Shown here one piece after another: positions 1 through 31,443 of a stretch of 64,000 nucleotides of DNA. The stretch is from IMG/VR virus record IMGVR_UViG_3300028833_000109, positions 32,350 through 96,349 of that record; one strand, 5' to 3'. The position numbers and the translations under genes were made by a program. Source of the stretch: a virus. Lineage: Duplodnaviria; Caudoviricetes. Below the pieces are notes generated by a model, which saw only the letters and a program-made list of their open reading frames with translations, did not search any database and had not been told where the DNA came from. Within the stretch, counting starts at the first letter, position 1, and each line of letters opens with the position of its first letter.

Positions 1-608
1 TTCTTGCGCATGGCGTCGCAGATGCGTTTCCAGTCCTCGGCTGTGACGATGGCGGTTGCCGTGTCGTTGCCTGACTGCAAAAGACTTGCATCGTCCTCGG
101 TCATAACGGCGAGAACACGGGAGTTTGTCGCCGCAAACGTAACCGCTTGCGTCACTTTATCGTACTCGACAAGAACGTGGTTGAGTACAGGGTGTCCGTA
201 ATCGTCTTTCTTTTGCGTGAACTCGGCGAGACGTTTCGCGTCGAACTGCATCGAGAACGATGCGATAATTTCGCGCTCGTCGTTGTCGGGCATCGTGAAC
301 GAATAACCCTTGCCGAATTTCTGCATGATGTCGAGTAGGTTTCTCACGTCGAACGAGCCTTTGAAATTTCCCACCTCGATTTTCTCGATGGGATAATCAT
401 CGGTATCGGCGTACATCTCGAACATGATGCGCAGGAACAGCGGATTGCCGTACCTTGTCTCGGACTTGTTGAGGTCGTTGAAAGTGAGTGTCGGTTTATT
501 TTCCGTTGCTTTGCGCAGTTCCTCGGTGCCTGATGCGGCGTTGAGATACTTGTCGGCGATTTCGCACAGTTTGGCATAGATTGCCTGATTCATTTCCTTG
601 TTGTTCAT
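1..608 (-). CDS. hypothetical early protein (3' end runs off the window)
   Basis: ATG at 608 behind the shared ATTATG spacer motif; frame MNNKEMNQAIYAKLCEIADKY... reads toward position 1; absent from the ORF track, presumably because its stop lies outside the window. Confidence 0.7.
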   Translation of the reverse strand, partial: MNNKEMNQAIYAKLCEIADKYLNAASGTEELRKATENKPTLTFNDLNKSETRYGNPLFLRIMFEMYADTDDYPIEKIEVGNFKGSFDVRNLLDIMQKFGKGYSFTMPDNDEREIIASFSMQFDAKRLAEFTQKKDDYGHPVLNHVLVEYDKVTQAVTFAATNSRVLAVMTEDDASLLQSGNDTATAIVTAEDWKRICDAMRK

Positions 609-683
609 AATTGAATTGGTTTAATTGGTTAATAAAAATTGGTTTGTTCCCATGCGCCCGATTTTGAGCGCATGGGATAGTGA

Positions 684-1136
684 TTAGTAGTGGTAGTCGA
701 GGATGCCGCCGATGTAGAACTTGTCGCCGGGCTTGTAGTTCTCGTAGATGTACTGGCAGAAATAGCCGAAGTCCCAAAATTCCTCGCCGTTCATGCAGAT
801 TTTCACCGCCCATTTCTCGTGGGTTTTCTTCATTAAGTCCTTGAGATTATAGAACGAGAGCCAGTCGCTGAAATCGAGATTGTTTGCCATTTCGACGATT
901 TTCATTTTCCAATCGTCCATAAAACCGCCCATCGGTCTTAGCGTTAATTCCCTGCCCTTGCGGGTGAAGATTTCCAAATCATCGAACCATGCGATGATTC
1001 CTTTTTCCGCTTCCTTTTCGATGTTTTGAATGTAGTCGGCGAAATTGCTGTACTCTTCGGGAATGATGCTTTCCTCGTTGATGTAGTCGGCTCGTTTCTT
1101 TTTCTCGGTGCCGATTTCGATAATTTTTGCGTGCAT
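684..1136 (-). CDS. hypothetical early protein
   Basis: ORF 684..1163; likely start MHAKIIEIG at 1136, after the spacer motif. Confidence 0.75.
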   Translation of the reverse strand: MHAKIIEIGTEKKKRADYINEESIIPEEYSNFADYIQNIEKEAEKGIIAWFDDLEIFTRKGRELTLRPMGGFMDDWKMKIVEMANNLDFSDWLSFYNLKDLMKKTHEKWAVKICMNGEEFWDFGYFCQYIYENYKPGDKFYIGGILDYHY

Positions 1137-1207
1137 AATTGTTGAATTTAATTGGTTTAACAAAGTGAATAGCCAGCGACAACCCGCAAAGGATTGCCGC
1201 CGATAGA

Positions 1208-1486
1208 TTAGTCGTTGAACTCAATGCCCATAAATTCATCATCGTAGCCAATCTTGACTGCGCCAAGTTCAAGGCTGTAGAGTTCTCCAATATCCATTTT
1301 GTACATCTCGCCAGTCGTGTTTTCTGGCCAATGAATGTCACAAACCTGCTTTCCGTTATAGAAACGCAGGAAACCATCATCGTCAAGAAGAAATTCAAGA
1401 TGGCTTTTGCGCATCTTATCAATCAATTCTTCCATTTGCTCGATAAGTGCGTTTTGTTTTTTTGTCGGTTTTAATCTTGAGTCCAT
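1208..1486 (-). CDS. hypothetical early protein
   Basis: 92-aa ORF bounded by hairpin/ATTATG spacers. Confidence 0.7.
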   Translation of the reverse strand: MDSRLKPTKKQNALIEQMEELIDKMRKSHLEFLLDDDGFLRFYNGKQVCDIHWPENTTGEMYKMDIGELYSLELGAVKIGYDDEFMGIEFND

Positions 1487-1558
1487 AATTGTAGAATTAA
1501 TTGGTTAAACTTGTGAAAATTTGCCAGCCAGCGGTTATTATGCCGCCAGCCGAAAAAG

Positions 1559-1903
1559 TCACTTGACAAGTTGCTTGTAATCTTCCTCGTCCAAATCCTC
1601 GTAGTACATCATGCCCATTTGTACGGCGCAGGCTTCCATTGTTTTCCACCAAAGGCCGTCAAGTTCCTCGTTGATGTCCTCGATTTCAAAGTTTGCGTCT
1701 TTCCAGTACTTTAATGTACCTTCGTAGTCAAATTCCCGACCGATTGCATCGGCGAGTTTCTGCATCTGGCTGTCAGACCAGTTGAACGCAATCATAGCAC
1801 ATGGGAGTCCTTCGTAAAGCGAACGCTCGATAGTGTGCCAGCGGCAATTTTCGGGAGTTCCAGGAATGATAAACTCTTTCTCAAGGTCGAATTTCTTGCT
1901 CAT
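1559..1903 (-). CDS. hypothetical early protein
   Basis: 114-aa acidic ORF bounded by spacers. Confidence 0.7.
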   Translation of the reverse strand: MSKKFDLEKEFIIPGTPENCRWHTIERSLYEGLPCAMIAFNWSDSQMQKLADAIGREFDYEGTLKYWKDANFEIEDINEELDGLWWKTMEACAVQMGMMYYEDLDEEDYKQLVK

Positions 1904-1974
1904 AATCTAAAATTTTATTGGTTGATAAAAGTGAAAATTGCCAGCGGACAGGTATTGTCCTGCCCGCCGATAGA

Positions 1975-2205
1975 TTAGCCGAAAAGTTTCAGCAGGTCAT
2001 AAGCGAGGAACCTTTTTGCGCTTTCTTCGCTTTGCCATTCTTTTTTCAGTTCTTCAAGAATGGGCTTGTAGTGCTGGTCGTAGTATGCGAAAAAATTCTG
2101 CCAGTCGGTAAAGCCACCAGGCTTGATGTCGCTGAAGTCGATAAATTCGCGCTCGTTTGTGATAACGGTCGGATTTTCCTCTGCAAGTTGTCTTAAAGTA
2201 GCCAT
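1975..2205 (-). CDS. hypothetical early protein
   Basis: 76-aa ORF, closely following 2218..2481. Confidence 0.65.
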   Translation of the reverse strand: MATLRQLAEENPTVITNEREFIDFSDIKPGGFTDWQNFFAYYDQHYKPILEELKKEWQSEESAKRFLAYDLLKLFG

Positions 2206-2217
2206 TGTCGTAAAGTT

Positions 2218-2481
2218 TTATAGTTCAACAAAAATTCCTTCGGTGATAACCTCGTCGCATGGATCGTCATTGTCAATCACTCGGACTGAAAGATTGTGCC
2301 ACACTGGAACGCCGTTGCTCGGCTCGCCGTAGATGTCGTAAAGAAACCTCTCGTTATCACTGGTGCCTAAATCGCCAATCCAGTAGTCGTAACCGATTTC
2401 GATGATGCCGACAAGTTCGCGCGTGATTGTTTGCCCTTTGTAGGGAAATCGTACTTTTGTGCCGATGTTTGCTCTAATCAT
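2218..2481 (-). CDS. hypothetical early protein
   Basis: 87-aa ORF with ATTATG start. Confidence 0.7.
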   Translation of the reverse strand: MIRANIGTKVRFPYKGQTITRELVGIIEIGYDYWIGDLGTSDNERFLYDIYGEPSNGVPVWHNLSVRVIDNDDPCDEVITEGIFVEL

Positions 2482-2547
2482 AATCGTAAGTTTTTAGTTA
2501 GTAAAGTGAATAGTAAGCGGCAACCGATTGAGATTGCCGCCCAAAAA

Positions 2548-2829
2548 TTAGGACTCCTCGAAATAACATTGCTTGCACCATGTAGGCTTGTTCGCGCCGC
2601 TGCTCTCATAGTAAGCGATGTATCCGCGCATGTCCATAACTCGCTCGCCGTTTTCGTTGATGTGCCACATCATGTTGATTTCAAAATACGCTTCGCTGTC
2701 GCTGTCTTTTTCCTCGACAAGCCAGTAAGAGTAATTTTCATCTTCATAATTGCGGGCGAAATTGTCGGTATCAAGTTCGGTGAAAATTGTCAGTTTTCCG
2801 TTAATCGTTGTTGCGGTTTGTAGTTCCAT
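2548..2829 (-). CDS. hypothetical early protein
   Basis: 93-aa ORF with ATTATG start. Confidence 0.7.
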   Translation of the reverse strand: MELQTATTINGKLTIFTELDTDNFARNYEDENYSYWLVEEKDSDSEAYFEINMMWHINENGERVMDMRGYIAYYESSGANKPTWCKQCYFEES

Positions 2830-2896
2830 AATCTTGAAATTTTAATTGGTTAATAACTCGCGGACTGGCGACTGCAATAGTCGCCCGCCCAAAAAA

Positions 2897-3490
2897 TCAG
2901 TCCTCGAAATCGAGATTCACGCCAGCTTTCTCGCCGCACTGCAACAGGAAATTTTCATCGTGACGCTCGACCTGAATGTCGTAGCCGATGTCACAATAAC
3001 GCTTCGTGAAGTAGGGAAGTTCGGTTTTTGCTGTTTCTTCGCTGAACGAATAGCCGTAACAGCGATACGCGCCCTTGCCAAAACGCCCGATGATGAAATA
3101 CACCGCATCGTTTTTGTCGGGATCATAGTCGCGCAGGTTTTCCCAGTTGTCAACGATTTGACGACCGAGACATGCGATTTTCTCACCATCGGCAATTTCC
3201 TCGCTGATAAGTTTGCGGCCGTAAAATTTCGTGTCGCAATACTTCGTCGGCTTGTTGAGCGGATTGAGAGCGAGAACAGGATAACTGCCGCTTCGCAAAA
3301 CGGAATTGCCGTACTTTGCCATTTTTTCGACTTCTTCTTTGAAGTAGTCGGGCGTGTTGTCCTGATAGTAGGTAATTTCGCGCGTCGGCTGAATGTGTGC
3401 CTGGAAATCTGGTTCAGGTTTGCGACCGCACTCAGTCCAAACACACAGCCCGTTGCCACGATAACCGAAATAGATTTTTTGCTTTTCCAT
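2897..3490 (-). CDS. hypothetical early protein
   Basis: 197-aa ORF with ATTATG start. Confidence 0.75.
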   Translation of the reverse strand: MEKQKIYFGYRGNGLCVWTECGRKPEPDFQAHIQPTREITYYQDNTPDYFKEEVEKMAKYGNSVLRSGSYPVLALNPLNKPTKYCDTKFYGRKLISEEIADGEKIACLGRQIVDNWENLRDYDPDKNDAVYFIIGRFGKGAYRCYGYSFSEETAKTELPYFTKRYCDIGYDIQVERHDENFLLQCGEKAGVNLDFED

Positions 3491-3563
3491 AATTCTGAAT
3501 TTTATTAGTTAAACTTGTGTGAATAGCGCCACAATCCAGAGTTTTCCAGATTGCAGCAATAGG

Positions 3564-4046
3564 TCAGGCGATTTTCCGTACTGATTCAATCAGCTTGTCC
3601 ATTTTGGGGACGTTGAAACGATTTTCCCAAAACGTCTCGCGGAACGGCGCGGGTAGGATTTTCTGAATGATGAAATTCACCAGTTCAACCCACGTTTTGC
3701 TGGATTTTGTTGACCAGTCCTTGACGTAATAGCCGCGCTCGTCGGTGATTTTCTCGGCGAGAAGAATCGGTTTCGTGAGTTCATAAACTCGCTCGTTATC
3801 TTCATCGGACAACAGGAACATTTCTTTTTCATCGGTGATCCTGTCGCCGACTTTGATGCCGATGCGCTCGTAAGCATCTTCAGCGAAAAACTCGTTTTCA
3901 CGCAAAACGCGGTTATAGACTTCATTAACCTGCTGGTCTTGCAACTTGCGGCCAGCCTCGGCCTCGTCGTAGGTCGCTAACAGTTCCCTCAGTTTTTCGA
4001 CGTTCTCCGTGCGGTTGCGAATCAATTCATTTAATAATTTTTCCAT
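3564..4046 (-). CDS. hypothetical early protein
   Basis: 160-aa helical ORF with ATTATG start. Confidence 0.75.
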   Translation of the reverse strand: MEKLLNELIRNRTENVEKLRELLATYDEAEAGRKLQDQQVNEVYNRVLRENEFFAEDAYERIGIKVGDRITDEKEMFLLSDEDNERVYELTKPILLAEKITDERGYYVKDWSTKSSKTWVELVNFIIQKILPAPFRETFWENRFNVPKMDKLIESVRKIA

Positions 4047-4118
4047 AATTGCAAAATTTTATTGGTTAAACAAAAGTTAGTGACCAGCGGGATATTGTTC
4101 CCGCCGGCCTCGTGAGAG

Positions 4119-5018
4119 TTAAACGCCCATAGGATTGTCGCAATACTTGATGTATTCCTCGCGTTCGCGCTTGTATTCCTCAGAGTTGAAATCTACAGGC
4201 TTGTAAATTCCATCGCTGATGTTGGGCGACCATGTGACGATTTCGTTTTGCTCGTTTACGACAAAACCATCGACGATTTTGCCGTTGAAAAGCACCTTAA
4301 TCGGTTTTCCGTTCTTGGGCGCATCTTCTTCGCGTGTGTAACACTTGTGTACAATCTTCTGGTAACTCGCGTCTTTGAGCTCGTTAAACGTGTGGGTTTC
4401 GTAACCGACGTATTTCGCCCAGGCTTTGAAAGCCTTCTCGGATTTGAAACTCATGGCGTTAAAACCATAATCGCCAGTGTTCTCGATCCATACAGCGTAA
4501 CGCGGTGGCTCGCCGTTGCTTCTCGGCAACTCGTCAGAGCGATAAACGAACGAGCGAGTAACCTTGTCGGTGTCGTAGGGAATAATCCATTTGCGGACTT
4601 TCAGCGGGAAATAAATTCCCTGGTGAGCGCCCGCGCCGTGACAGCCCCAAGTCCACACGACGTTGAAATCTTCGCCAGCGGGTTGAAGTTCCGAAGCGTC
4701 TTTGCTGACGAACGCACCGCCAGAGGTGGAAAAATATTTTCCATCGGTGTGCGATGTGCCAGCTTCGCAGATGCAAAGTTTTCCGTTGTGGTACATGTTC
4801 TCGACGATTTTTCCATGCTTGTAAACATGGAAGCCATCGGAAAACTCAACGATGTCGCCGATTTTCGGCCCGTTGATGTGTCCGTATGTCTCGTTGTAGG
4901 TTTTCTCGACCTTGAGCGCGATGTCGTAACAGCGTTGCATTTCTTTCTCGTGATAATCGGGAAATTGATAACTACCAAAAGCTGCGTTTCTCTGCTTGAA
5001 ATTCTCAAAAGTTTCCAT
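4119..5018 (-). CDS. DUF4121-like protein
   Basis: 299 aa; P-x-x-GD, STSGGAF and W-x-WG-x-x-GA-x-x-x-x-G-x-x-F-x-x-x-V-x-x-W motifs recalled from Bacteroidales DUF4121 proteins. Confidence 0.55.
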   Translation of the reverse strand: METFENFKQRNAAFGSYQFPDYHEKEMQRCYDIALKVEKTYNETYGHINGPKIGDIVEFSDGFHVYKHGKIVENMYHNGKLCICEAGTSHTDGKYFSTSGGAFVSKDASELQPAGEDFNVVWTWGCHGAGAHQGIYFPLKVRKWIIPYDTDKVTRSFVYRSDELPRSNGEPPRYAVWIENTGDYGFNAMSFKSEKAFKAWAKYVGYETHTFNELKDASYQKIVHKCYTREEDAPKNGKPIKVLFNGKIVDGFVVNEQNEIVTWSPNISDGIYKPVDFNSEEYKREREEYIKYCDNPMGV

Positions 5019-5088
5019 AATATTGAAAATTATTGGTTAATAAAGTGAGTAAGCGAAACAGGCGGGATTTCTCGCCGCCTGAATCATG

Positions 5089-5592
5089 TTAGCCCCATTT
5101 TGCCGCGCTGTATTCGGCATCGTAACTGACGATGTGGGAAAGAAGTACAAAAATCATTTCGTGCAGGATTTTGTGAAATTTCTCGTACTGTTCTTTTCTC
5201 GGCCATGTGTTGTAAAATTCTGGCCGCATCCAGCCTTTTGCGTCGGTGTTGTACTCGATGCACTGCAAAGTTTTCACAAGCTGGCAAATTCCGATGCACT
5301 TTTGTTTCGTGATGTCGATAGCGTGAAGCGCACAGCCCCAGTCGATAGGCTCGAAATCGGTGAACTCTCCGCGATGATACGCCACAGCGTTGAAAATCCA
5401 TGCGAGGTGAACAAATTCGTTTGCTTTTTCTCTCACGTTTTTTTCATCGTGTTTGTAGTAACCTGTCGGTCCCATGAAAGATTCGCAGAACCACAGCGGC
5501 GTTTCTTTTGTGTGTTCACGCCAGAAAGTTGCGCTGCACATTGTTTCGCGTACTTGTGCGAGAGTGTCGATTGATAACGGAAGTGTACTCAT
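5089..5592 (-). CDS. hypothetical early protein
   Basis: 167-aa ORF with ATTATG start. Confidence 0.7.
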   Translation of the reverse strand: MSTLPLSIDTLAQVRETMCSATFWREHTKETPLWFCESFMGPTGYYKHDEKNVREKANEFVHLAWIFNAVAYHRGEFTDFEPIDWGCALHAIDITKQKCIGICQLVKTLQCIEYNTDAKGWMRPEFYNTWPRKEQYEKFHKILHEMIFVLLSHIVSYDAEYSAAKWG

Positions 5593-5660
5593 AATCGTAG
5601 AATTTAATTGGTTAAATACTCAGCCGACCGACGCGCGGCAAAGCGCACCAGCCGATAGGG

Positions 5661-6245
5661 TCATTCGCCAAGAATGTAGTCAGCGAAATTGTTCGGGCGC
5701 ATCAAATCGTCGTTCCAATCCACTGTGTCGGCAAAATCCTCAAGCACGCTGCTGGCCTCAATCCTTGTGATACCGAGGTCGTTCTCATAATCCGAGAGAT
5801 AGATAGAACCGATGCCGCACTGATTGAACAGCCTGCAAAGTTCCTCGCGGTCGAGGTCGTAAACGTCGCGGTATTCTTGCACATCATCATCGTAGCGCAC
5901 CATGAAGTCGTCGCAGTCTTGCAGTACAACCCTGCCGAGTTCATCGTTTTTGCCGATGCACTTGTAAAGCTGTCCGCAGTAAACGACATCCTTATCGCAC
6001 GGCTCGATGGGGAACAAGTCCTCCAGCCTGATTTGGCTCTCGCCGTGAATATTCTCGACGATTTCAACACGGCACCACTCGCAATATTGTTCAGGTGTCG
6101 GGTCTGGCGAACCGTCGGTGTAATACGGGCGATATTCGCTGATTGTCACGACCTGCGGATCAACGTCAAGGTTGTTGTCCCACTCAAAACTCATGGGGTA
6201 GAAGATAACCTTGTTTCCAGGTTTGATAAAATCTTTGTAGTCCAT
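5661..6245 (-). CDS. hypothetical early protein
   Basis: ORF 5661..6326; likely start MDYKDFIKPG at 6245, after the spacer. Confidence 0.7.
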   Translation of the reverse strand: MDYKDFIKPGNKVIFYPMSFEWDNNLDVDPQVVTISEYRPYYTDGSPDPTPEQYCEWCRVEIVENIHGESQIRLEDLFPIEPCDKDVVYCGQLYKCIGKNDELGRVVLQDCDDFMVRYDDDVQEYRDVYDLDREELCRLFNQCGIGSIYLSDYENDLGITRIEASSVLEDFADTVDWNDDLMRPNNFADYILGE

Positions 6246-6322
6246 AATCAAATCAAATTTAGTGGTTAATAACTTGGTGAGCGAGCGACCGCAACAGCCG
6301 CCCGCCCTGAGTAAAGCAAAAA

Positions 6323-6667
6323 TCAATTTTCGTACTTTGGAAACTCAGCGAGGAATCCATCGACCTTCAGGTCGTGCAGTTCATCGTCGGTCAAATCTTC
6401 TTTGCGCTTGTAATACATAAGCACTTCGGGATTTTTCGTACTGAACACAGGATAAAAACCAAGTTCCGAAAAACTTTGCGCGAAACATTCAAGACCGAAG
6501 CGCAGGTAAATTCCGTACTGGTGGTCTTGTTGGTCGGTTATTGGTCCCCAGTTCCAATTTGATGAATGGTCAGAGGGTGACAAACCGCCGAAATATTTTT
6601 CCTTTAATGCGTAGAGCGCAATATTTTTCAGTTCCAAATCCGTGTAATAACTTTTTTTCTTTGCCAT
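6323..6667 (-). CDS. hypothetical early protein
   Basis: 114-aa ORF with ATTATG start. Confidence 0.7.
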   Translation of the reverse strand: MAKKKSYYTDLELKNIALYALKEKYFGGLSPSDHSSNWNWGPITDQQDHQYGIYLRFGLECFAQSFSELGFYPVFSTKNPEVLMYYKRKEDLTDDELHDLKVDGFLAEFPKYEN

Positions 6668-6731
6668 AATCGTGAATTTTTAAAAGTGAATAATCGTACT
6701 CCCGCCAGCCGCACGGCCAGCGAGAACAATT

Positions 6732-7262
6732 TTAGGCGACAATAGCGCAGGGCTTGTAATACTTGTTGTTTTCCTCGTCGAGCAAATACTCGCTGAGATT
6801 GTAGAAAAACGGCTCGATGTAGCCCACAACTTCAGCGTCGTTAAAATCTTCGCTGTAAATTTTGTAGCAAACATTCTCGGTGTAGTTTACAATCATCACG
6901 AGTTCCTGCTGGTAGAACATTTCGACCAGCCTTTTTGCGTGATACTCGAAAAGATTTGAGCAACGGTCGCGCAATTTCTTGCACATAGCGAGAAGTTTTT
7001 CAAGTTCAGGCGTTGAGCCGAAACTGTAAACGGATTTGTCGATACCATCAATAATTCCATCGTAATCTTTTACGCGGATAAAATTGTGGTTATAGAATCC
7101 GAGGCTCCAGTCGGACAAATACGGCGTGATGCAGTGTAATTTATCCGTGAGCCAGTCCATTTCGCAGTCCTGAACGTAATTGTCAAATTTCTCGCGCAGT
7201 TTTTTGTCGCGCTTGAGCAATTCGATTTGCTTTTCTACTGTGAGTTCTGAAAACTTTTTCAT
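6732..7262 (-). CDS. hypothetical early protein
   Basis: 176-aa ORF with ATTATG start. Confidence 0.75.
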   Translation of the reverse strand: MKKFSELTVEKQIELLKRDKKLREKFDNYVQDCEMDWLTDKLHCITPYLSDWSLGFYNHNFIRVKDYDGIIDGIDKSVYSFGSTPELEKLLAMCKKLRDRCSNLFEYHAKRLVEMFYQQELVMIVNYTENVCYKIYSEDFNDAEVVGYIEPFFYNLSEYLLDEENNKYYKPCAIVA

Positions 7263-7332
7263 AATTGATAAAATTTATTGGTTAATAACTTGGTGAGCGC
7301 GGCAATTATCGTACTGTCGCGCCCAAATTTCA

Positions 7333-7617
7333 TCATCTGCCGATGCTCACAATCTTTGCGCTTGTTGTCACGTTCACGCGCAAAATCGTGTCGTAAACTT
7401 CATCGCCGCCGGTCACTTCAATTTCTTTGCAAAAATCATAGTGCGCTGCCGTGAACACGCCAAATTTTATGTACGGCAAATCATGATACAAACCGCGGAA
7501 ATACGCGGCTTTTTTCTCGCACTCGTGACGTGAGCCACTGCAAACTGATACGGCGTACTTTTCTTCGTCGTGAAACTTCACAACGACGAATTTTTCTTTG
7601 CTTGAAAAGTCAATCAT
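7333..7617 (-). CDS. hypothetical early protein
   Basis: 94-aa ORF. Confidence 0.65.
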   Translation of the reverse strand: MIDFSSKEKFVVVKFHDEEKYAVSVCSGSRHECEKKAAYFRGLYHDLPYIKFGVFTAAHYDFCKEIEVTGGDEVYDTILRVNVTTSAKIVSIGR

Positions 7618-7642
7618 AACTGAAAAAATTTATTAGTGAAAT

Positions 7643-7731
7643 AATTATCGTACTGTCGGCCAGTGGAACACACCAGCCGACAATTTTCGTACTCTCGGAC
7701 AATTATCGTACTACTCAATAATTATCGTACT
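7643..7731 (+). repeat. cluster of AATT(A/T)TCGTACT direct repeats
   Basis: 12-mer at 7643, 7682, 7701 and 7720 (spacings 39, 19, 19); further copies at 7304 and 6325. Confidence 0.85.
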
Positions 7732-7957
7732 ACATGCCCCAGGTAGCGAGATTATTCTGCAAGCCAGACTTTTCAACCTGCCACTGCAAAAAATCATTCT
7801 CGCGTTTCAGTTCCTCGACCTGGTTTAACGCGGCGTTTCTCTCCATGCACACGCGGCTGTAGCCATCGCAAGCGCACAAATAGAGACACACAAGCGTGAA
7901 ACAAGCGATAGCGAGAATCACGCACAAAACACTCAGGGAATAGACAATCTTTTTCAT
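7730..7957 (-). CDS. small membrane-anchored coiled-coil protein
   Basis: N-terminal hydrophobic Cys-containing helix, then a heptad-like segment. Confidence 0.6.
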   Translation of the reverse strand: MKKIVYSLSVLCVILAIACFTLVCLYLCACDGYSRVCMERNAALNQVEELKRENDFLQWQVEKSGLQNNLATWGM

Positions 7958-8001
7958 AGTCGTATCATTTTTTGGTTAATAGCTTTGCGCTTCACAGCGG
8001 G

Positions 8002-8385
8002 TCAAACCGCTGCAAAGTAAAATTTGCGGCACTCAGCCCAATCAATACCGTATTGCGCCAGAGTGTTTTTGTCGATCCGAAAATTTTGCATCGCGTTTCT
8101 CAGGTGTGACCACCAGTTTTCGCGCTTTTGCAGAAAAATATCGGATTTTTTGTTCTTTATATCTTGAAGCTCAAGATATTTGGCGCGGGAAACCCGCAGC
8201 ACTCTGGCCACGGGCTCCATTTCGTCGAGTTCCTCTAAAAAAGTTTTCTTTTCCTTTTTTATCGGCTCGTCGTCGCACCACAAATTTTGCATCGCGCTAA
8301 ATTGTTCGGGCGTGAGACGTTGAATGTCGTAACCCTGGGCATTTGCGAGCGCGAGCACCATTAATTTGCGAGAATAACCGTTCAT
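8002..8385 (-). CDS. hypothetical early protein
   Basis: 127-aa ORF; ATGA overlap with the upstream small ORF. Confidence 0.65.
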   Translation of the reverse strand: MNGYSRKLMVLALANAQGYDIQRLTPEQFSAMQNLWCDDEPIKKEKKTFLEELDEMEPVARVLRVSRAKYLELQDIKNKKSDIFLQKRENWWSHLRNAMQNFRIDKNTLAQYGIDWAECRKFYFAAV

Positions 8386-8543
8386 GCCGTTACAGGTTTT
8401 ACGCCGATAGTCTTGAATCTCACGCCGCCGATTTTATTTCCCGCGGCTGCAAGTTTCGCTAACTTCCTGGCGATTGTTCCTAACTTTTCGGCTGTTTCCT
8501 CGCGTTGTTCACCGTTAACGGTGTAAATGAATGTGTTCTGCAT
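8382..8543 (-). CDS. small basic protein (53 aa), first gene of the leftward array
   Basis: MQNTFIYTVNGEQREETAEKLG...; has the shared spacer motif and an ATGA overlap with the next gene; below the ORF-track cutoff. Confidence 0.6.
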   Translation of the reverse strand: MQNTFIYTVNGEQREETAEKLGTIARKLAKLAAAGNKIGGVRFKTIGVKPVTA

Positions 8544-9398
8544 AACTTAATTGATTTTATTGGTTAATAAAAAGTTTGTGAACGGTGTGGATATTGCGCC
8601 ACACCGCCCAGGAATTTGTGCGTATCATGAATTAAATCTAAGAAATTCACTAACCAAAAAATTCAATTATGGTACGGGCTGTCAAGCGGAAAATTTTCCA
8701 CCGAAATAAATCGGGTAATCTTTTTTCACGCTTTCAGGCGCTGGCTTCCTTATCACGCAGCGCCCGCAAAATTCTGTCGTCGCTCGGACTGTCAAACGGC
8801 GTCACCCTTTGGCGATCCCGATAACACGTTATCACGGTCGCCTGGGCTGTCTCACACGGAAATTTATCGACACGTCGAAATTTTTCCGTTTAACCGGCCT
8901 CGGTTTTAACTCGGTTTTACCGTTTGAATTTCCGTTAAGTTCTTCATCAAAAAATCTCGACTGAAAAACAGTCGAAAAATTTCGATGAAAAACAAGCTGC
9001 AATTTATTGCGGCCCGGCCTGCAAATTGCCCCAAGCCCTGGGGCCTGGGTACATGTGGACTAATAGACCACATCAAAGATCGCATTTAATACCATGGGCG
9101 CGGCTTGCATCGCTAGCAAGCTGTCAAGTCGTGAAACTGTCAAGTTAGACAGGATCACAAGCCAGACAACCGGCCCCGCGTCGCTTTAACCGCGTCGAGG
9201 GTATTATATTTGCCCCTGGGCCACATCATAACCCGCTGTTAGGATATTGCACCCGCGGCGGGTAATAATGTTATCCAGATAGACCAAACAGGCAGCACAC
9301 GACACACACGACACACACGACCGGCCCCGCGTCGATGAGAAGCGAGACAGGCCCCAGGCCGTTATATTTCGGTGTACCTGAATAGTCCAGCAGGGACC

Positions 9399-9431
9399 AA
9401 AGAAAAACAGCCTACATTTTGAATGTAAGCT
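9399..9431 (-). terminator. intrinsic terminator or attenuator just downstream of promoter 9467
   Basis: minus-strand hairpin AGCTTACATT-CAA-AATGTAGGCT (one G.U) followed by GTTTTTCTTT. Confidence 0.6.
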
Positions 9432-9466
9432 ATTATTTTGTGCCTAACATATATCCGATACAGTAA

Positions 9467-9474
9467 CAAAGTTA
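9467..9474 (-). promoter_or_regulatory. Bacteroidota -7 promoter element
   Basis: TAACTTTG on the minus strand; no clear -33 element. Confidence 0.55.
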
Positions 9475-9514
9475 CACGGCCCCACGGCCGTTATTAGGCG
9501 AAATTTTAAGTATT

Positions 9515-9557
9515 AAAAAATTTGGGGCCCGAAAAATTTTCAAGCCCCAAAAATTTG
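9515..9557. terminator. terminator after ORF 9572..9781
   Basis: aaatttggggc...gccccaaaaattt inverted repeat with A/T runs on both sides. Confidence 0.6.
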
Positions 9558-9571
9558 TGAAGGGAAAAATT

Positions 9572-9781
9572 TTAGTCGTTATCAAAAACTTTTTTCACAA
9601 AGCAATACCAAGTATATAACCAGGCACACGAAACAGCGAGGAAAAGAAAAATATTTAACCAGCCGTGATAATTAATAAGGTCTGCAATATAACCGGTAAT
9701 TAAACCGATAACAACCATATTATACAGGCAAATGAAAAACACATGAATTAACGCACATGTATTGTTAATTAACTTTTTCAT
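9572..9781 (-). CDS. small two-TM membrane protein
   Basis: 69 aa with two hydrophobic segments. Confidence 0.55.
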   Translation of the reverse strand: MKKLINNTCALIHVFFICLYNMVVIGLITGYIADLINYHGWLNIFLFLAVSCAWLYTWYCFVKKVFDND

Positions 9782-9837
9782 AGTCTCTAATATTGTGGCC
9801 TGGGCCGCGTCGATGCAAGCCCAGGCCGGGTAAATAA

Positions 9838-10623
9838 TTACAATCTTTCAACGCTGTTGAAGGTACATAAACCGCGAATATTATCCGAAACAACTTGAAT
9901 AATTTCGGACTCGGTGTAAAATCCAGTGAGGGCAATAGCTTTTGCCATGGTACCAAGTGAAGTCAAAGAAAATTTTGCTTCACCTTTAAAATTAATCATT
10001 TTGCCAATTGCATTGCGTTTCATTGAATAGCTTGCAACCGACTTAATAAGATTGCTAACTGTGACGCTGGCAGGCTCAATAAAGTAGCTTATTTCGTCGC
10101 TCAATGTTTGGCGGGTGTAACCGCTGTTTTCGTCGTCGCTACTGTGATAGATATTCACAGAATTACCAGTAACTAAATTGTCACGATCTAAACAGGCATT
10201 ACCGCAATAGTTAAGAATATCATTCTTTAACTCGACATTGCTGTTAATGTGGTTAATAAACTCATCGACTGTGATAGTGTTTGCAGCATCCTTTTTCGCT
10301 TGCTTGATAGTCACTTTAATAACCGACTCATTGAGGCCGGCGGCCTTGAGGGCGTTACGCGTCGCAACTTCATCAAAAGCGACGCCCGCGGGAGTAAACG
10401 ACTCAAAATGTTTTCTCAGGGCCTGAATTGTTTTAGCTTTATTCATTTCGGCCAACTCGGCGTTATCAACCTGGGCAGCAGTCCCGGCGCCCTTTGCATC
10501 GCTTTTTGTAGTCGTATTGTCGTCGATCTCGACTACTGGCAAATTATTTGCCGGGTTAATCACTTGAGGATCGGCGCTACTTTGCACCGCGTCACTCGTT
10601 TTAGTTAATTTACTCATAATCAA
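9838..10623 (-). CDS. hypothetical immediate-early protein
   Basis: 261-aa ORF directly downstream of a full consensus promoter. Confidence 0.7.
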   Translation of the reverse strand: MIMSKLTKTSDAVQSSADPQVINPANNLPVVEIDDNTTTKSDAKGAGTAAQVDNAELAEMNKAKTIQALRKHFESFTPAGVAFDEVATRNALKAAGLNESVIKVTIKQAKKDAANTITVDEFINHINSNVELKNDILNYCGNACLDRDNLVTGNSVNIYHSSDDENSGYTRQTLSDEISYFIEPASVTVSNLIKSVASYSMKRNAIGKMINFKGEAKFSLTSLGTMAKAIALTGFYTESEIIQVVSDNIRGLCTFNSVERL

Positions 10624-10666
10624 TACTTTATTTAAAATGTTAATAATATATGTATCTAAACATCTA

Positions 10667-10697
10667 CAAAGTTATAACAAATAATTAATATAACAAA
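10667..10697 (-). promoter_or_regulatory. full consensus Bacteroidota sigma-A promoter
   Basis: TTTG (10697-10694) - 19 nt - TAACTTTG (10674-10667) on the minus strand. Confidence 0.8.
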
Positions 10698-10730
10698 TTA
10701 TTTATATCTTTTTTTTGTGATTATTGTAAA

Positions 10731-10768
10731 AACTACTGTTTTCGGTAGTAACTACCTTTTTCGGTAGT
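10731..10768. promoter_or_regulatory. tandem palindromic operator-like sites
   Basis: AACTACTGTTTTCGGTAGT + AACTACCTTTTTCGGTAGT: two adjacent 19-mers, each containing ACTAC-N8-GTAGT. Confidence 0.6.
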
Positions 10769-11536
10769 AGTCGCAAATTAGACCTCAGGACAACAAGAAC
10801 ACACAACACGACACAGTTACACCCAGGGACATTTTAAAAGCGTCTCAGGCCGTAATATAAGGTAGTAGGCACAACAGGACACGACAGGCCTGGCACAGAT
10901 CCAGAGACAACCGGCCCAACAGTTAAACGGGATATATAACAACCTGGGCGACGTCTCACAGGATCAGACCGGCGGCACCTGTATAGCTGTGACCCCTCAA
11001 GACCTGAAACAAGGTAAACGGACTATTTCTATATGATGAGTAAATGAAGGGACAGCCAGACCGACAACGGCGGCGGCACGTCTCGACAGATCCAGACCGA
11101 TAACAAGACAACACACACGGCGCCCGGCCTGGGCTATTTCTCGAAATAAACAAGGTAGTATAATAGTCGATGATTAAAACACGACAGAAGACAGGAGAAC
11201 AAGCTACATTATATAATGATTAAACAAGGTAAAACAAGCGAGAAAACAGGAGTAAATAACAAGTGAGTAAATAAGGAAAAAAGGGAGTAAACAGACGAAA
11301 TTTGGTGCATCATTGCAGCCTGGGCGACGTGACGCGGGACACATATTTATATAGGTATATAAATCACTGCAATACTGAAAAACCGCTGAATTATTGACTA
11401 TTACACCACCGGCCCCCCAAATCGGGGAAATTGCCCGACAATGTGACCCCTCGTCGAGATTTTTTAATTTTTTCGATTTTCAATTTTCCGTTTTCCGTTT
11501 TCGGCAATCCCTTTATTCATCGGCATTCGTGACTGG

Positions 11537-11754
11537 AAATGTACCAAATTCCGCAAAAGTGCAAAAAACACGGAAAGTGGCGTTTTTCCTAGTGAAAATT
11601 CGTTAAATTACTGTTAACAATGTACTAAAACGGGGTTTTTGGGGTCAAAAATGTACCTTTCCAGTGAATGAAATTTGATTTCCACTTTTAATGTTTATTG
11701 TTTGTTTTCAATAGTTTACCTTTGTGCCGATGTACCAAATGAACAAAATGTACC
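11537..11754 (+). repeat. ATGTAC(C) iteron-like repeats upstream of the primase
   Basis: copies near 11539, 11620, 11651, 11730 and 11748 in an AT-rich tract. Confidence 0.6.
11717..11724 (+). promoter_or_regulatory. -7 promoter element for the primase operon
   Basis: TACCTTTG about 110 nt upstream of the primase ATG. Confidence 0.5.
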
Positions 11755-11835
11755 TTATTTTGGACATTGGTAAATATGATTTTATATTATTGTTTTTAGG
11801 TCGGTTTCAAAAAATTGAGGGATTCCGTGTCAAAT

Positions 11836-13272
11836 ATGGCTGATTTGGGTGTCATAGAGCGTTTAGGCGGTGAGATTCACTCGTCGTTGAACAAGCGTTC
11901 GTTGCGTAACGCCTATCAGCAGCCGAGGTTCGGTGACAGGCTGTACGGTTACCAGGAGTTGGTTATGGAGGCTTGTTCCAAGGTGTTGCGTTACCGTTTG
12001 GGTGACGTGTACTATTTTGACGGCGTGGTATGGAGGGAGTTGCCCGACATTGTTTTGGAGTCCGCTTTGAACAGGGCTTTGGTCAAGGGTGGCGTGTCTA
12101 AGAGCGATTTGGTCAATGCCAGGTCTAGGCTTATGCACAGTGCCAAGGGTGGTGCTTCTATGAGTCCTTTGATGCTGAGTGCTTCTGTGACTGCTTTCCG
12201 CAATGGTGTTTGGGATTTCAGTGACATAGACAATCCCGTGAGGCATGAGTTCTTTGACAGGATGCCTGTCGTTAGGGTGTTGCCTTACGATTATGACCCC
12301 GATGCCGTGTGTCCGATGTGGCGCGGTTTTCTCGGTTCGATACTCCCTTCGGGTGATGTCGTCAAGTTGCAGAAGTTCCTGGGCTTGGGTTGTGTTGACC
12401 GCACGAAGATGTCGAGCAAGGTCGAGACTGCGTTGTGGCTCATCGGTTCTGGTGCCAATGGCAAGTCAACGATATTCGATGTCGTGCGCGGTGTGTACGG
12501 TGCGGACAACTTGTCGTATGCTGGTTTGGACACGTTGATTGGCGGCAGTCCAGAGGCTCGTGCGAGGTTCATCGGCGGCATCGCTGGCAAGCTGTTCAAC
12601 TATTGCTCCGAGGTGCAGGCCGATGACATGACGAAGTACGCCGACACGTTCAAGGCTTTGTGTTCTGGTGAGCCGCAGACGATACGCAAACTGGGCTGCA
12701 ATCCTGAGACGGCTTTCGACATCCCGTTTTTGATATTCAACATGAACCGCAGACCCGTCAACCGCAAAATCGACAATGCGCTGATGCGCAGGCTGCTCAT
12801 CATCCCGTTCCGCACTACCGTGAGCGCCGAGGACATGAACGCCGAGTTGGGTAGCCAGTTGCAGGGCGAGTTGAGCGGTATCCGCAACTGGATGCTTGAA
12901 GGGTATAGGATGCTTGTGCGCGACAACTTCAAATTCACGACATCGAAAGTCTCCGATGAGCAGATGACTGACTACTTGCTTGAGAACGGCCAGACGGTCC
13001 AGGTGTTCTTACAGAGGTCTGGTTTCTCGCCTAACCGCAGGTCGGGTCACTGGGAGGATAGGATGCAGTGGGTTAGCGCGTCTGAACTGTACGCCGATTA
13101 TGTTAGTTTCTGCGAGCGCTGGGCTCAGGAGCCTGACAACCAGAGGGCGTTCGGCGGCGAGATGACCCGATTGGGCTGGAACGACATGTCTGGTAACCGC
13201 AAAAGGACATCGGCGGGTTATTTATACGGAATGTTTTGTGATGACAAAATCAGTTATGCGTTAGATATATGA
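11836..13272 (+). CDS. D5/P4-like primase-associated SF3 helicase
   Basis: D5_N-like FRNGVWD and YDPDAVCPMWRGFL; Walker A GSGANGKST; motif C-like FNMN; RRLLIIPF. Confidence 0.85.
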   Translation: MADLGVIERLGGEIHSSLNKRSLRNAYQQPRFGDRLYGYQELVMEACSKVLRYRLGDVYYFDGVVWRELPDIVLESALNRALVKGGVSKSDLVNARSRLMHSAKGGASMSPLMLSASVTAFRNGVWDFSDIDNPVRHEFFDRMPVVRVLPYDYDPDAVCPMWRGFLGSILPSGDVVKLQKFLGLGCVDRTKMSSKVETALWLIGSGANGKSTIFDVVRGVYGADNLSYAGLDTLIGGSPEARARFIGGIAGKLFNYCSEVQADDMTKYADTFKALCSGEPQTIRKLGCNPETAFDIPFLIFNMNRRPVNRKIDNALMRRLLIIPFRTTVSAEDMNAELGSQLQGELSGIRNWMLEGYRMLVRDNFKFTTSKVSDEQMTDYLLENGQTVQVFLQRSGFSPNRRSGHWEDRMQWVSASELYADYVSFCERWAQEPDNQRAFGGEMTRLGWNDMSGNRKRTSAGYLYGMFCDDKISYALDI

Positions 13273-30501: not shown

Positions 30502-30558
30502 CCATGTCGATGCGCATAGACAAATTAACTAACACAAACTTTAAATCTAACACAAACA

Positions 30559-31443
30559 ATGGCTGAAATTTATCAGTTGCCTGACAACGGCAGCAACAAT
30601 GGTAGCAACATTCCTTTTTCAATTCCTATCGGTGGTTTCAATGGTGGCGGTTTCGGTTTCGGAAACGGCATGAACGGCATCGCTGATTTGTTCGGTCTCG
30701 CAATCATCGCCTCGATGTTCGGTTGGGGCAACGGAGGCTGGGGCAACGGTTTCATGGGCGGCGGCAATGCAGGCACTGCATACCTCGGCAACATGATTTC
30801 CAACGACAGCGGTCGTGAACTGGTCATGAACGCCATCACCTCGCAGGGTGAGGCAAGCCGCAGCGCAATCCAGAACCTCGCAACCACCATCGGCCAGGAC
30901 TTCAACCTCGTGAATGCCGGTGTCACCAACGTGCAGAACGCGCTCAACACCCTCGCATTGCAGAATGCAGTGAGTGTTCCTCAGATCATCAACGCCATCC
31001 AGAGTGGTGATGCAAGCCTTGCAAGCCAGTTGTGCAAGTGCTGCTGCGACAACCAGTTGGCCATGTGTCAGCAGACGAATGCCCTACAAACGCAGGCTGA
31101 CCGCAACGCCAATGCTTTGATGCAGGCCATCAACGCTCAGACCGTTGCGATGAACGACCAGTTCTGCGCCTTGAAGGAGCGTGAGTTGCAGTCGAAGATT
31201 GACACGCAGGCCGACATCATCACCCAGTTGCGCGGACAGATTGACAACGCCAACCAGACCGCAGCCATCACGGGTTATGTCAACGGACTCGTTGCTCCCT
31301 TGCAGGCCAAGGTGACCGAGATTGCTGATAAGATGCCTTCGACTGTGCCGGTTCAATGGCCTCAGTTGACCGCAGTCAACACCACACCCTATGTGAATGG
31401 CGGTTTTTACGGCAATGGCTTTGGCAACAACGTAATGTTTTAA
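30559..31443 (+). CDS. Gly/Asn-rich, TM-containing coiled-coil protein with CCC motif (unknown function)
   Basis: GFGFGNG / hydrophobic helix / GWGNGGWG, CKCCCD, then Q/N-rich heptads. Confidence 0.8.
   Translation: MAEIYQLPDNGSNNGSNIPFSIPIGGFNGGGFGFGNGMNGIADLFGLAIIASMFGWGNGGWGNGFMGGGNAGTAYLGNMISNDSGRELVMNAITSQGEASRSAIQNLATTIGQDFNLVNAGVTNVQNALNTLALQNAVSVPQIINAIQSGDASLASQLCKCCCDNQLAMCQQTNALQTQADRNANALMQAINAQTVAMNDQFCALKERELQSKIDTQADIITQLRGQIDNANQTAAITGYVNGLVAPLQAKVTEIADKMPSTVPVQWPQLTAVNTTPYVNGGFYGNGFGNNVMF

Follow-up and report, generated by a model that had tools for sequence, protein, structure and literature searches.

A hairpin-and-leader module repeated between the small early genes of a temperate Prevotella phage

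The left part of the window (the whole stretch of 64,000 nucleotides analysed here) carries a leftward array of small genes separated by spacers of similar build, which raises the question of what these spacers do. ORF calling placed 18 small genes in the in-window portion (1..8543, minus strand). The array comprised 23 consecutive minus-strand genes from window position 8543 to genome position 28,950, ending 3.4 kb left of the window. Beyond the left edge, four further small genes, an FtsK-like gene, an HTH gene and a tyrosine integrase were annotated. The integrase (278 aa, approximately 4 kb past the edge) is a generic Xer-like recombinase, and it corrects an earlier remark, made for the window only, that no integrase is present. 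None of the 18 in-window array ORFs had a Pfam match above the cut-off. The phage is a temperate Prevotella siphovirus, and its host belongs to the Shine-Dalgarno (SD)-less Bacteroidota.

The module between neighbouring small early genes is approximately 70 bases long and present at almost every junction, with approximately 20 spacers of similar build across the 23-gene array. Its order is stop codon, hairpin, CTATTCAC, TTAACCAAT box, A-rich leader and ATTATG. Seventeen array spacers were 64–77 nt long, and approximately 38 nt were nearly identical in every spacer. The hairpin begins approximately 5 nt past the stop codon and has a stem of 9–18 bp (median 12) and a loop of 3–8 nt. The motif TTAACYAAT (at most one mismatch) had 15 minus-strand matches in 615–8567 and was merely scattered elsewhere in the 64 kb. 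The covariance model R1 also gave 15 matches in the window, all on the minus strand and within 606–8627, and 106 copies were found over this phage and 17 loci of related phages. Spacer folds compared with dinucleotide shuffles gave z = −1.1 to −6.9. The shared architecture proposed by a sequence-only reading of this DNA is therefore real, and the layout continues past the window; the spacing between box and ATG is not fixed, as it floats by approximately 2 nt. The four stems quoted as examples all folded as stated. The stems had been described as divergent in sequence, which is not entirely so, since CGGCTGGCGG...CCGCTGGCTGG-like arms recur. No published description of this hairpin-and-leader module was found in the literature.

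All in-window modules lie on the minus strand; below, bits are R1 scores, and z and kcal/mol refer to spacer folds. The module before the 396-aa gene (606..686; 57.8 bits) has a 12-bp hairpin at 677–648, the box at 631–623 and ATG at 608–606, and its fold reached −23.5 kcal/mol (z = −6.9). The module at 1134..1210 (56.1 bits) has a 13-bp hairpin (1203–1173), the variant box TAAACCAAT (1159–1151) and ATG at 1136–1134. The first quoted example is at 1484..1561 (hairpin 1557–1520, box 1507–1499, ATG 1486–1484; 48.4 bits). It is followed by 1901..1977, with a 12-bp hairpin (1970–1941), box TCAACCAAT (1925–1917) and ATG at 1903–1901 (57.1 bits, z = −5.1), and by 2479..2550, with a 12-bp hairpin (2543–2514), the variant box TTACTAACT and ATG at 2481–2479 (52.2 bits). 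The latter hairpin is conserved with locus L197, upstream of the family 12 gene. At 2827..2899 (51.9 bits), the hairpin lies within 2899–2854, the box at 2852–2844 and ATG at 2829–2827. The second example, 3488..3566 (50.5 bits), has a 14-bp hairpin with five G.U pairs (3558–3527), box TTAACTAAT (3511–3503) and ATG at 3490–3488; its coding strand folded at −17.0 vs −7.4 for the complement. The 11-bp hairpin of 4044..4121 (4109–4082; box 4068–4060, ATG 4046–4044; 47.2 bits) has a T-rich tail, one of just two such in the array. The module at 5016..5091 (44.1 bits) also has an 11-bp hairpin (5085–5055), with the box at 5039–5031 and ATG at 5018–5016. The third example is at 5590..5663 (hairpin 5661–5618, box 5614–5606, ATG 5592–5590; 48.2 bits) and the fourth at 6243..6325 (36.6 bits), where a 13-bp hairpin with six G.U pairs (6307–6279) precedes box TTAACCACT (6269–6261) and ATG at 6245–6243.

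Towards the array head, the module at 6665..6734 (hairpin 6731–6692, ATG 6667–6665; 42.6 bits) has a degenerate box (TTCACTTTT), and its coding strand folded at −21.9 vs −9.9 for the complement. At 7260..7335 (51.3 bits), the hairpin (7322–7297) carries AGTACGATAATT in its loop, with the box at 7284–7276 and ATG at 7262–7260. An atypical long spacer at 7615..7732 (fold −33.6) has a 14-bp hairpin (7684–7652), the variant box TTCACTAAT (7639–7631), ATG at 7617–7615 and four copies of AGTACGAWAATT, three of them spaced 19 bp. In the short module at 7955..8035 (hairpin 8017–7990, box TTAACCAAA 7978–7970, ATG 7957–7955; 34.4 bits), the stop codon of the upstream gene sits in the hairpin loop. The first module of the array (8541..8627; 41.7 bits) has a hairpin at 8610–8579 with a T-rich tail, which was terminator-like in the terminator scan, the box at 8566–8558 and ATG at 8543–8541. 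These last two modules were outside the R1 training set.

Selection acts on the hairpin in its RNA form, on the coding strand. Paired cells made up 84.2% vs 46.1% in shuffles and 39–48% in slid controls, and double-change cells numbered 471 vs 182, a level reached by 0 of 500 shuffles; the alignment behind these counts was fitted to the model, a procedure that biases them towards structure. G.U pairs exceeded A.C at paired columns by 166 to 42 overall (p = 1e-18) and by 44 to 6 in this phage. The coding strand folded more stably than its complement in 18 of 20 spacers of this phage (p = 0.0007) and in 46 of 63 non-redundant spacers from seven phages (p = 7.7e-7). The covariance model that had been suggested as a check thus revealed covariation, and together with the G.U asymmetry it upholds the earlier view of G.U-rich stems kept by selection as a single-strand structure on the transcript strand. 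G.U-rich stems indicate that the hairpin acts at the RNA level and not as single-stranded DNA.

The hairpins are not canonical terminators. Only 4 of the 63 spacers had at least six T within the 10 nt after the hairpin, and only two array hairpins passed the terminator scan, whose total was at shuffle level; most lack a U-tail, as was noted before. The same scan marked hairpins followed by T6 just upstream of the array at 9551–9521, 9434–9406 and 8977–8955. The U-rich CUAUUCACUUUAUU lying 3′ of the stem could support partial termination.

The part of the spacer nearest the start codon corresponds to the signal that Bacteroidia use for SD-independent initiation. An A at −3, −6, −12 and −13 raises translation in a Bacteroidia species (Baez et al. 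2019, PMC6847099). The A frequencies upstream of the array ATGs were 0.97 at −13, 0.97 at −12, 0.89 at −3 and 0.74 at −6. The other 77 genes of the phage showed the same enrichment (about 0.34–0.55) and lacked the box. The A positions are fixed relative to ATG, and the box drifts at 15–19 nt from it. The A/U tract of the spacers is this start-codon-anchored signal, which the sequence-only reading overlooked.

The TTAACCAAT box is phage-specific. Host genes do not use it and it neither matches nor pairs with 16S rRNA, so the known initiation rules leave it unexplained and a promoter or regulator role is possible. Several observations place the box in the mRNA. It may stand 1–4 nt after a stop codon without any hairpin, and overlapping gene pairs have neither the hairpin nor the leader part. 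Canonical −33/−7 promoters were located upstream of hairpin, box and leader (genome 30542; locus L201, 3561). Canonical TAHHTTTG sites stand at other module borders, and the only match in the in-window array, at 6261 in module 6243..6325, is incidental. Apart from this match, the reported absence of TAnnTTTG from the spacers was borne out.

The hairpin moves together with the gene before it; the box, in most cases, moves with the gene after it. A hairpin identity of at least 0.7 was found in 12 of 24 spacer pairs sharing only the upstream gene vs 1 of 23 sharing only the downstream gene (Fisher p = 7e-4). The box variant TAAACCAAT goes with downstream gene family 4 in four phages, with a different hairpin in each. 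Gene maps of the related phages were mosaic, and 24.7% of HSP ends fell inside spacers, which make up 9.7% of the sequence. The 4→9 spacer of locus L199 is a chimera of two L197 spacers, which needs no more than shared homology between spacers. One single-gene indel had its breakpoint within a hairpin arm. Under the cassette model, gene gain and loss would break exactly at the hairpins; single-gene changes do break in the spacers, but crossovers lie on either side of the hairpin or within it. The related phages gain and lose single genes at the modules, as T4-like phages do at PeSLs (promoter-early stem-loops; Arbiol et al. 2010, PMC2839356; Comeau et al. 2014, PMC4122927).

The module is also present in a second phage group, where identity is only about 32% for the primase and 33% for the integrase. 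A sister module was found in Segatella/Prevotella phages (loci L063, L098, L085 and others), consisting of a stop box, a covarying hairpin, a CTATTAACCAAW box and an A-rich leader. Hairpin, box and A-rich leader are common to both, whereas the spacers are 64–81 nt in this phage's group and 45–63 nt in the sister group, and the stop context is TGAC/TAAT in the former and TAGCCWAA in the latter. Only this phage's group has the additional CTATTCAC element and an array terminating in the FtsK-like gene and integrase.

We propose, with moderate confidence, that this accessory early region yields a long early transcript in which hairpins serve as 3′ stabilisers or insulators and portable leaders double as homology patches for gene exchange. 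Leftward transcription from host-type promoters at the array head and before the FtsK-like gene would produce a single long RNA or a small number of them, and every junction would be a two-part RNA module. The hairpin would belong to the upstream gene and act in the transcript, where it probably blocks 3′-to-5′ decay or sets the boundary for processing or attenuation, and may shield the next start region from upstream sequence. The single-stranded leader of the downstream gene (CTATTCAC, the phage-specific box, which presumably has a reader, and the A-rich initiation region fixed to AUG) would grant any ORF, regardless of its sequence, strong SD-independent ribosome loading. Since approximately 38 nt are near-identical per spacer, the modules may also serve as homology patches for the exchange, loss and gain of single genes. 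Among the three roles offered by the sequence-only reading, processing or stabilising sites in a polycistron seem to fit best. Several observations count against this explanation: the promoter scan of 8630–9400 showed no clear promoter for the array head, the hairpin of the first module has no gene upstream, the known initiation rules do not account for the box, and the U-rich CUAUUCACUUUAUU could permit some termination.

The same linkage of 5′ element, ORF and 3′ hairpin would be expected of promoter-gene-terminator units. Each gene would then be its own short-leader PeSL-type unit, in which an attenuator or terminator hairpin is joined to a phage-specific promoter (CTATTCAC plus TTAACCAAT) used by host RNA polymerase with a phage factor. 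T4 PeSLs are a precedent (PMC2839356), the box is confined to one gene class as class-specific promoters are, and the first module has hairpin and box though no gene precedes it. We nevertheless consider this explanation doubtful. TAnnTTTG is not found in the spacers, sigma-70-like hexamer matches put the start site within the ORF, and searches of the phage for a sigma factor domain (regions 2 or 4) were negative. A−13 and A−12 track the ATG rather than the box, so the mRNA 5′ end must lie at or upstream of −14, with no space for a −7-type start past the box. The box can also abut the upstream stop codon, and approximately twenty unrepressed promoters would be awkward for a temperate phage.

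A regulator site was another of the proposed roles, and it is possible. The box would be a class tag on early mRNAs, to which a phage-encoded protein, either an RNA-binding repressor or an endonuclease, would respond by shutting off early translation; this is compatible with the long-transcript explanation. RegA and RegB of T4 act in this manner on early initiation regions. T4 RegB cuts a motif in early-gene initiation regions (PMC3014915), and the box, missing from the host and from the phage's other genes, adjoins the ribosome-loading site in single-stranded RNA. This idea is unlikely on present evidence: the array ORFs, all without Pfam families above the cut-off, offered no candidate protein, a search for trans-acting complementary RNAs or ribozymes gave none, and a pure repressor site leaves the strict retention of the box in more than 100 leaders unaccounted for.

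RNA hairpins that recur regularly between the cistrons of an early operon and lack U-tails also recall the RNase III-type sites at which the polycistron of the T7 early region is cut into monocistronic mRNAs. A substrate of RNase III has to span about two helical turns, and T7 sites contain internal loops. The stems here are only 9–18 bp and mostly continuous, which makes the analogy weak and such sites very improbable. The attC-like role, in which the array-end tyrosine recombinase would move single-gene cassettes through structure-specific sites, is hardly credible: the array, FtsK-like gene and tyrosine integrase are syntenic in seven phages and single-gene indels are located at spacers, but there is no paired core or inverse-core, the conserved box lies unpaired outside the stem without a 5′-side complement, crossover points vary, G.U-rich stems favour RNA over single-stranded DNA, shared homology explains the L199 chimera, and no integron-integrase-specific model was among the profile matches of the integrase.

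Several known systems share features with these modules. REP-type intercistronic stabiliser hairpins (e.g., malE-malF) and T7 RNase III sites are stem-loops at cistron 3′ ends in polycistronic mRNAs that shape segment stability. The hairpins here also stand at the 3′ ends of cistrons, but they are coupled to a conserved leader, number approximately 20 per genome and are tied to gene exchange, and their stems fall short of the length of classical RNase III sites. Integron attC sites likewise form hairpins between promoterless single-gene cassettes, with the array beside a tyrosine recombinase; unlike them, the modules lack paired core sites and a fixed crossover, and their structure is selected as RNA. 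A short motif in early-gene initiation regions that marks an mRNA class for phage-directed post-transcriptional control is known from T4 RegB/RegA (reviewed in PMC3014915), where the motif is the Shine-Dalgarno GGAG itself, whereas the box here is 15–19 nt from AUG. The unstructured A/U-rich leader with A at −3, −6, −12 and −13 resembles the Bacteroidia initiation region (PMC6847099), with near-saturated A frequencies (0.74–0.97 vs about 0.34–0.55 in the phage's other genes); the TT at −2/−1 and the upstream TTAACCAAT box are outside that signal. Like PeSLs, the modules occupy a plastic early region, where a stem-loop and a conserved expression signal recur between small ORFan genes, and recombination among copies, with crossovers possible in or beside the stem-loop, inserts, deletes and replaces single genes. 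In PeSLs, a consensus sigma-70 promoter serves as the signal and the stem-loop is an effective terminator, whereas these spacers have no host-type promoter and their hairpins no U-tails. The conserved part is instead a start-codon-anchored leader with a phage-specific box, carried not by a T4-type phage but by a temperate siphovirus of an SD-less Bacteroidota host.

The source record of the phage (IMGVR_UViG_3300028833_000109) is 96,349 bp with a CheckV completeness of 91%, and the window covers its bases 32350–96349. The phage encodes an SPP1-type portal, a large terminase, a 2,332-aa tape-measure protein and a D5-type primase, and is thus a long-tailed siphophage. An FtsK-like gene, an HTH gene and a 278-aa tyrosine recombinase adjoin the window on its left, so the phage is temperate. 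The FtsK-like translocase (genome 29054–30400; 3055–4401 of L108, a stretch of the same record) consists of the motor domain only, and its nearest cellular homologues are the FtsK proteins of Prevotella and Hoylesella, with ~52% identity. The small recombinase (genome 27415–28251; L108 1416–2252) follows the FtsK-like gene in 7/7 phages, an order that recalls the FtsK–Xer partnership. The large terminase (window 21218–23965, minus strand, 915 aa) showed a weak match to the homing-endonuclease family Hom_end at residues 265–335, before the terminase domain, and possibly carries an intein.

ORF calling showed 23 consecutive minus-strand genes from window position 8543 to genome position 28,950. 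No array ORF matched a Pfam family above the cut-off. Seventeen spacers of the array measure 64–77 nt, and the overlapping gene pairs have neither hairpin nor box. Alignment of the spacers at their start codons showed a common TTAACCAAT, followed by an A-rich stretch and ATTATG. The alignment of 71 spacers, including those of six relatives, revealed a third element, CTATTCAC, between the hairpin and the box. The short box motif has 15 minus-strand matches in 615–8567 and only sporadic matches elsewhere. RNAalifold recovered only 3 pairs from a plain MAFFT alignment, because the stems are out of register there. The covariance model of the spacer (R1) was therefore built with the 12-bp helix given explicitly, and the spacers were realigned with the model. 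R1 found 15 copies in the window, all on the minus strand (606–8627), and 106 copies at E ≤ 0.01 across 317 kb from 19 sources, including copies outside the training set. The regular architecture before the leftward genes, which the sequence-only reading had described, is borne out by the ORF calls, the shared start-aligned sequence and the R1 copies, and the four stems quoted there fold as described.

The hairpin structure is under selection, and it is selected as RNA. Every spacer folds, with energies of −17 to −34 kcal/mol and z-scores of −1.1 to −6.9. In the model-guided alignment 84.2% of the pairing cells were paired, against 46.1% in shuffles and 39–48% with partners slid by 1–3 columns, and six pair types were present at each of the 12 pairs. 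A covariance model had been named as the check for this structure, and covariation was found: two-sided changes reached 471 cells against 182 expected (0/500 shuffles that high), and although the alignment was fitted to the helix, so that the covariation figures are biased towards structure, the margin is still large. Per-strand folding showed that the coding strand was more stable than its complement in 18/20 spacers of the phage (p = 0.0007) and in 46/63 non-redundant spacers of seven phages (p = 7.7e-7). The 63 spacers have 133 G.U pairs on the coding strand and 73 on the complement. The plus-strand A.C mismatches noticed earlier are indeed G.U pairs on the coding strand: at paired columns G.U outnumbered A.C by 166 to 42 overall (p = 1e-18) and by 44 to 6 in the phage alone. 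This asymmetry speaks for a function at the transcript level rather than at the DNA level.

The start-proximal half of the spacer is an initiation signal of the Bacteroidia type. Across 72 distinct spacers, with positions counted from the ATG, A had a frequency of 0.97 at −13, 0.97 at −12, 0.74 at −6 and 0.89 at −3, while A was near zero and T fixed at −1 and −2. These frequencies hold in every class of box-to-ATG distance (15–19 nt from the end of TAACC), so the adenines keep their place relative to the start codon rather than the box. The same four positions are positive determinants of Shine-Dalgarno-independent initiation in ribosome profiling and reporter assays of Flavobacterium johnsoniae, and the array spacers have the described layout of A at −3, −6, −12 and −13 with no Shine-Dalgarno sequence (PMC6847099). 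The other 77 long ORFs of the phage are A-enriched at −14 to −12 and at −3, more weakly (0.48–0.55) and without the box. Since A-13 and A-12 act in the mRNA, the mRNA starts at or upstream of −14, which places the box in the leader.

Near relatives were sought by DNA and by protein. A megablast search of 1–9600 against the phage collection gave no match, single-protein scans of viral contigs found no relatives of the 299-aa and 396-aa array proteins, and a 14-mer from the 5′ flank of the spacers gave chance matches only. Six contigs traced through homologues of the FtsK-like protein have the same order of array, FtsK-like gene and integrase, and the same kind of spacer (57–81 nt). Clustering of the array proteins gave mosaic maps in which single genes are gained or lost between kept neighbours. 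Spacers make up 9.7% of the sequence and hold 24.7% of the BLAST alignment ends (2.5-fold). Hairpin identity of at least 0.7 was seen in 12/24 spacer pairs with the upstream gene alone in common, against 1/23 with the downstream gene alone (Fisher p = 7e-4), and in 0/1,913 unrelated pairs. The variant box TAAACCAA precedes the gene of protein family 4 in four phages, with a different hairpin each time. The hairpin is thus linked to the upstream gene and the box and leader to the downstream gene, so the evolutionary unit is leader–ORF–hairpin.

Individual junctions showed where the exchanges lie. In the relative L199 the spacer between families 4 and 9 consists of the 5′ part of the 4–8 spacer and the 3′ part of the 8–9 spacer of the relative L197. 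The switch, in a shared GCCGT of the 5′ arm, removed a single gene along with a single spacer. At an extra gene between families 13 and 14 in our phage the break lies on the other side of the hairpin. In the spacer before the FtsK-like gene the inner hairpin alone is swapped between L197 and L199, and at the 14–4 junction our phage and L197 have entirely different hairpins between orthologous genes. Breakpoints therefore occur 5′ of, inside and 3′ of the hairpin. Gene-content breaks in relatives do fall in the spacers, as the mosaic maps, the alignment ends and the chimera show, with no fixed point of exchange. Homology-driven exchange predicts crossovers that vary in position within shared sequence, whereas a site-specific recombinase would place them at one fixed point. 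The array genes of the relatives include LPD29, LPD11 and DUF4942 domains (L197 1–1131; L199 2012–3499; L200 1880–3382), which are typical of the polyvalent proteins of mobile elements. These domain matches hint that the cassettes may carry host-takeover or anti-defence functions.

A search of viral contigs for an exact 17-mer brought up a distant second group of at least 10 contigs with tiny genes and 45–63-nt spacers. Their spacers consist of TAGCCWAA, a hairpin, the same box and then GAATTATG. The group is highly mosaic among its own members. Only the primase (32% identity) and the integrase (33%) are shared with our phage, and almost no array genes. That so distant a group has the same module indicates that the module is old and has been kept by selection across a large clade.

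We slightly favor the view that the array is transcribed into a long early RNA whose cistrons are separated by an RNA module, composed of a 3′ hairpin, an initiation leader and a recombination patch. The hairpin would be the 3′ structure of the upstream cistron and may block 3′ exonucleases, mark a boundary of processing or attenuation and act as an insulator. The leader would give each ORF strong Shine-Dalgarno-independent initiation, and the ~38 nt shared by the spacers may double as the recombination patch.

A PeSL-type arrangement, with a promoter at each gene, is rather unlikely. The canonical −7 element TAHHTTTG lies at other module borders and occurs only once, incidentally, inside the in-window array, so that the absence of TAnnTTTG from the spacers was confirmed but for this one match. 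Transcription from the sigma-70-like hexamer matches in the spacers would start inside the ORF. A full promoter (−33 TTG, −7 TACCTTTG) does occur in the long spacer before the FtsK-like gene (L108 ~4500–4545, genome ~30542–30570). A similar TACCTTTG promoter is kept in L197, L199 and the relative L201. The FtsK-like/integrase end of the array thus probably has a promoter of its own. In two cases, this spacer and L201, the −33/−7 promoter is followed by hairpin, box and leader in its 5′ UTR. In some spacers the box lies directly 1–4 nt past the stop codon, without a hairpin. Promoters upstream of the box, a box just after a stop codon and overlapping gene pairs without a box fit an mRNA leader better than a promoter.

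No clear promoter for the array emerged from the ~800-nt ORF-poor region before it (8630–9400). The word TTGACAG occurs there four times, along with GTGTGTGTC repeats, a repeated CGACGCGGGGCCGG and a pair of hairpin+T6 sites. On the minus strand at 9474–9406, a canonical −7 element (TAACTTTG at 9474) is followed ~40 nt on by a hairpin and T-run (9434–9406). Together they mark out a candidate small RNA of ~60 nt, with no Rfam match, at the head of the early region. A 12-mer, AGTACGATAATT in minus-strand reading, lies in or beside array hairpins at 6325, 7304, 7643, 7682, 7701 and 7720, the last three copies being 19 bp apart. The word AGTACGATAAT also occurs in spacer hairpins of four second-group contigs (L098, L085, L086 and L011). 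The 12-mer is probably a conserved site of protein binding, for instance an operator or iteron.

The box is phage-specific, and box and leader variants travel with the downstream gene. The pattern box-N13–15-ATG has 1–9 copies per ~3 Mb in five Prevotella/Hoylesella genomes, equal to the reversed control pattern, which argues against a general host signal. Pairing of the box with 16S rRNA, as proposed for the T7 epsilon enhancer, was rejected, the best run against a Prevotella 16S being 8 nt, the same as for shuffled boxes. Sigma-54 and ECF-type readings were dropped after inspection by eye because the spacing did not fit. No region 2 or region 4 domain of a phage sigma factor was found, and the RbpB CLIP paper holds no motif matching the box. 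We tentatively speculate that UUAACCAAU, often after CUAUUCAC, may be a translation signal of a new kind in bacteria that make no use of Shine-Dalgarno sequences. As an enhancer or class tag particular to mobile elements, it would be recognised by a dedicated RNA-binding factor of the host or the phage. Joined to the 3′ hairpin, it would make up a portable and self-contained "express-any-ORF" cassette for new genes in a large clade of Prevotella phages. By analogy with RegA/RegB (PMC3014915), the box could be a class tag of that kind, which is improbable as a specific proposal and compatible with the RNA module. An inverted box and leader, followed by a tiny plus-strand ORF and a hairpin, lie between the HTH gene and the integrase, facing the array end (genome 28323, plus strand; ~1501 of L001, another stretch of the record).

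The hairpins are not ordinary intrinsic terminators, which require a GC-rich hairpin with an immediate U-tract. Only 2/16 in-window hairpins passed the terminator scan, whose total was at shuffle level, and only 4/63 hairpins are followed by 6 or more T within 10 nt, in agreement with the earlier remark that most lack a U-tail. The same scan found textbook hairpin+T6 sites upstream of the array (9551–9521, 9434–9406 and 8977–8955), so the phage uses canonical terminators elsewhere. T7-type RNase III sites have a duplex of ~20 bp or more, often with an internal loop. The spacer stems are 9–18 bp (median 12), too short for such sites, which makes RNase III-type processing there very unlikely. 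No Rfam family, hammerhead and other ribozymes included, reached its gathering score in the 64 kb, and in 1–11900 none matched at E ≤ 1. A trans-acting ribozyme or guide RNA upstream was rejected on this result and because complementarity to the leader in 8545–11800 was not above shuffles.

The proposal of attC-like recombination sites is hardly tenable, because the box lies outside the helix with no complement on the 5′ side and hence no paired core and inverse core, no single crossover position is fixed, the pairing is RNA-type, and the recombinase is a generic Xer-like enzyme, not of the IntI type. The 278-aa recombinase gave only weak Xer-like matches, all far below the cut-off. Its top match was the combined model "tyrosine recombinase/integron integrase", and no integron-integrase-specific model was among its matches.

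Bacteroidota do not use Shine-Dalgarno sequences, and the recruitment of ribosomes to their mRNAs is only partly understood. In the phage clade one compact leader, with near-saturated initiation determinants and an extra conserved box missing from host genes, is present in more than 100 natural copies. The clade is therefore a ready-made test set for other drivers of initiation and mRNA fate in Bacteroidota. The module could also serve as an insulated expression part in engineered Bacteroides and Prevotella.

A literature search on the motif and on intergenic repeats of Prevotella/Bacteroides phages found nothing relevant and no paper on the module. The nearest described system is the T4-type PeSL (PMC2839356, PMC4122927), and the module is PeSL-like in genome evolution. 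Like PeSLs, it has a stable stem-loop in the intergenic spacer, seen in the folds, z-scores and covariation. PeSLs flank ORFans in plastic regions with indels at the motifs, and the mosaic maps, the chimera and the enrichment of alignment ends show the same here. In PeSLs a consensus host primary-sigma promoter stands beside the stem-loop, whereas the array has the single incidental TAHHTTTG. The PeSL stem-loop is an effective terminator; the array hairpins are without a U-tract, and the module probably lacks this feature too. In PeSLs, neighbouring motifs also recombine to give mini-circles. PeSL-style repeat-guided gene shuffling is not confined to T4-like phages of Proteobacteria, and in temperate gut phages it would have been rebuilt around a translation signal instead of a promoter.
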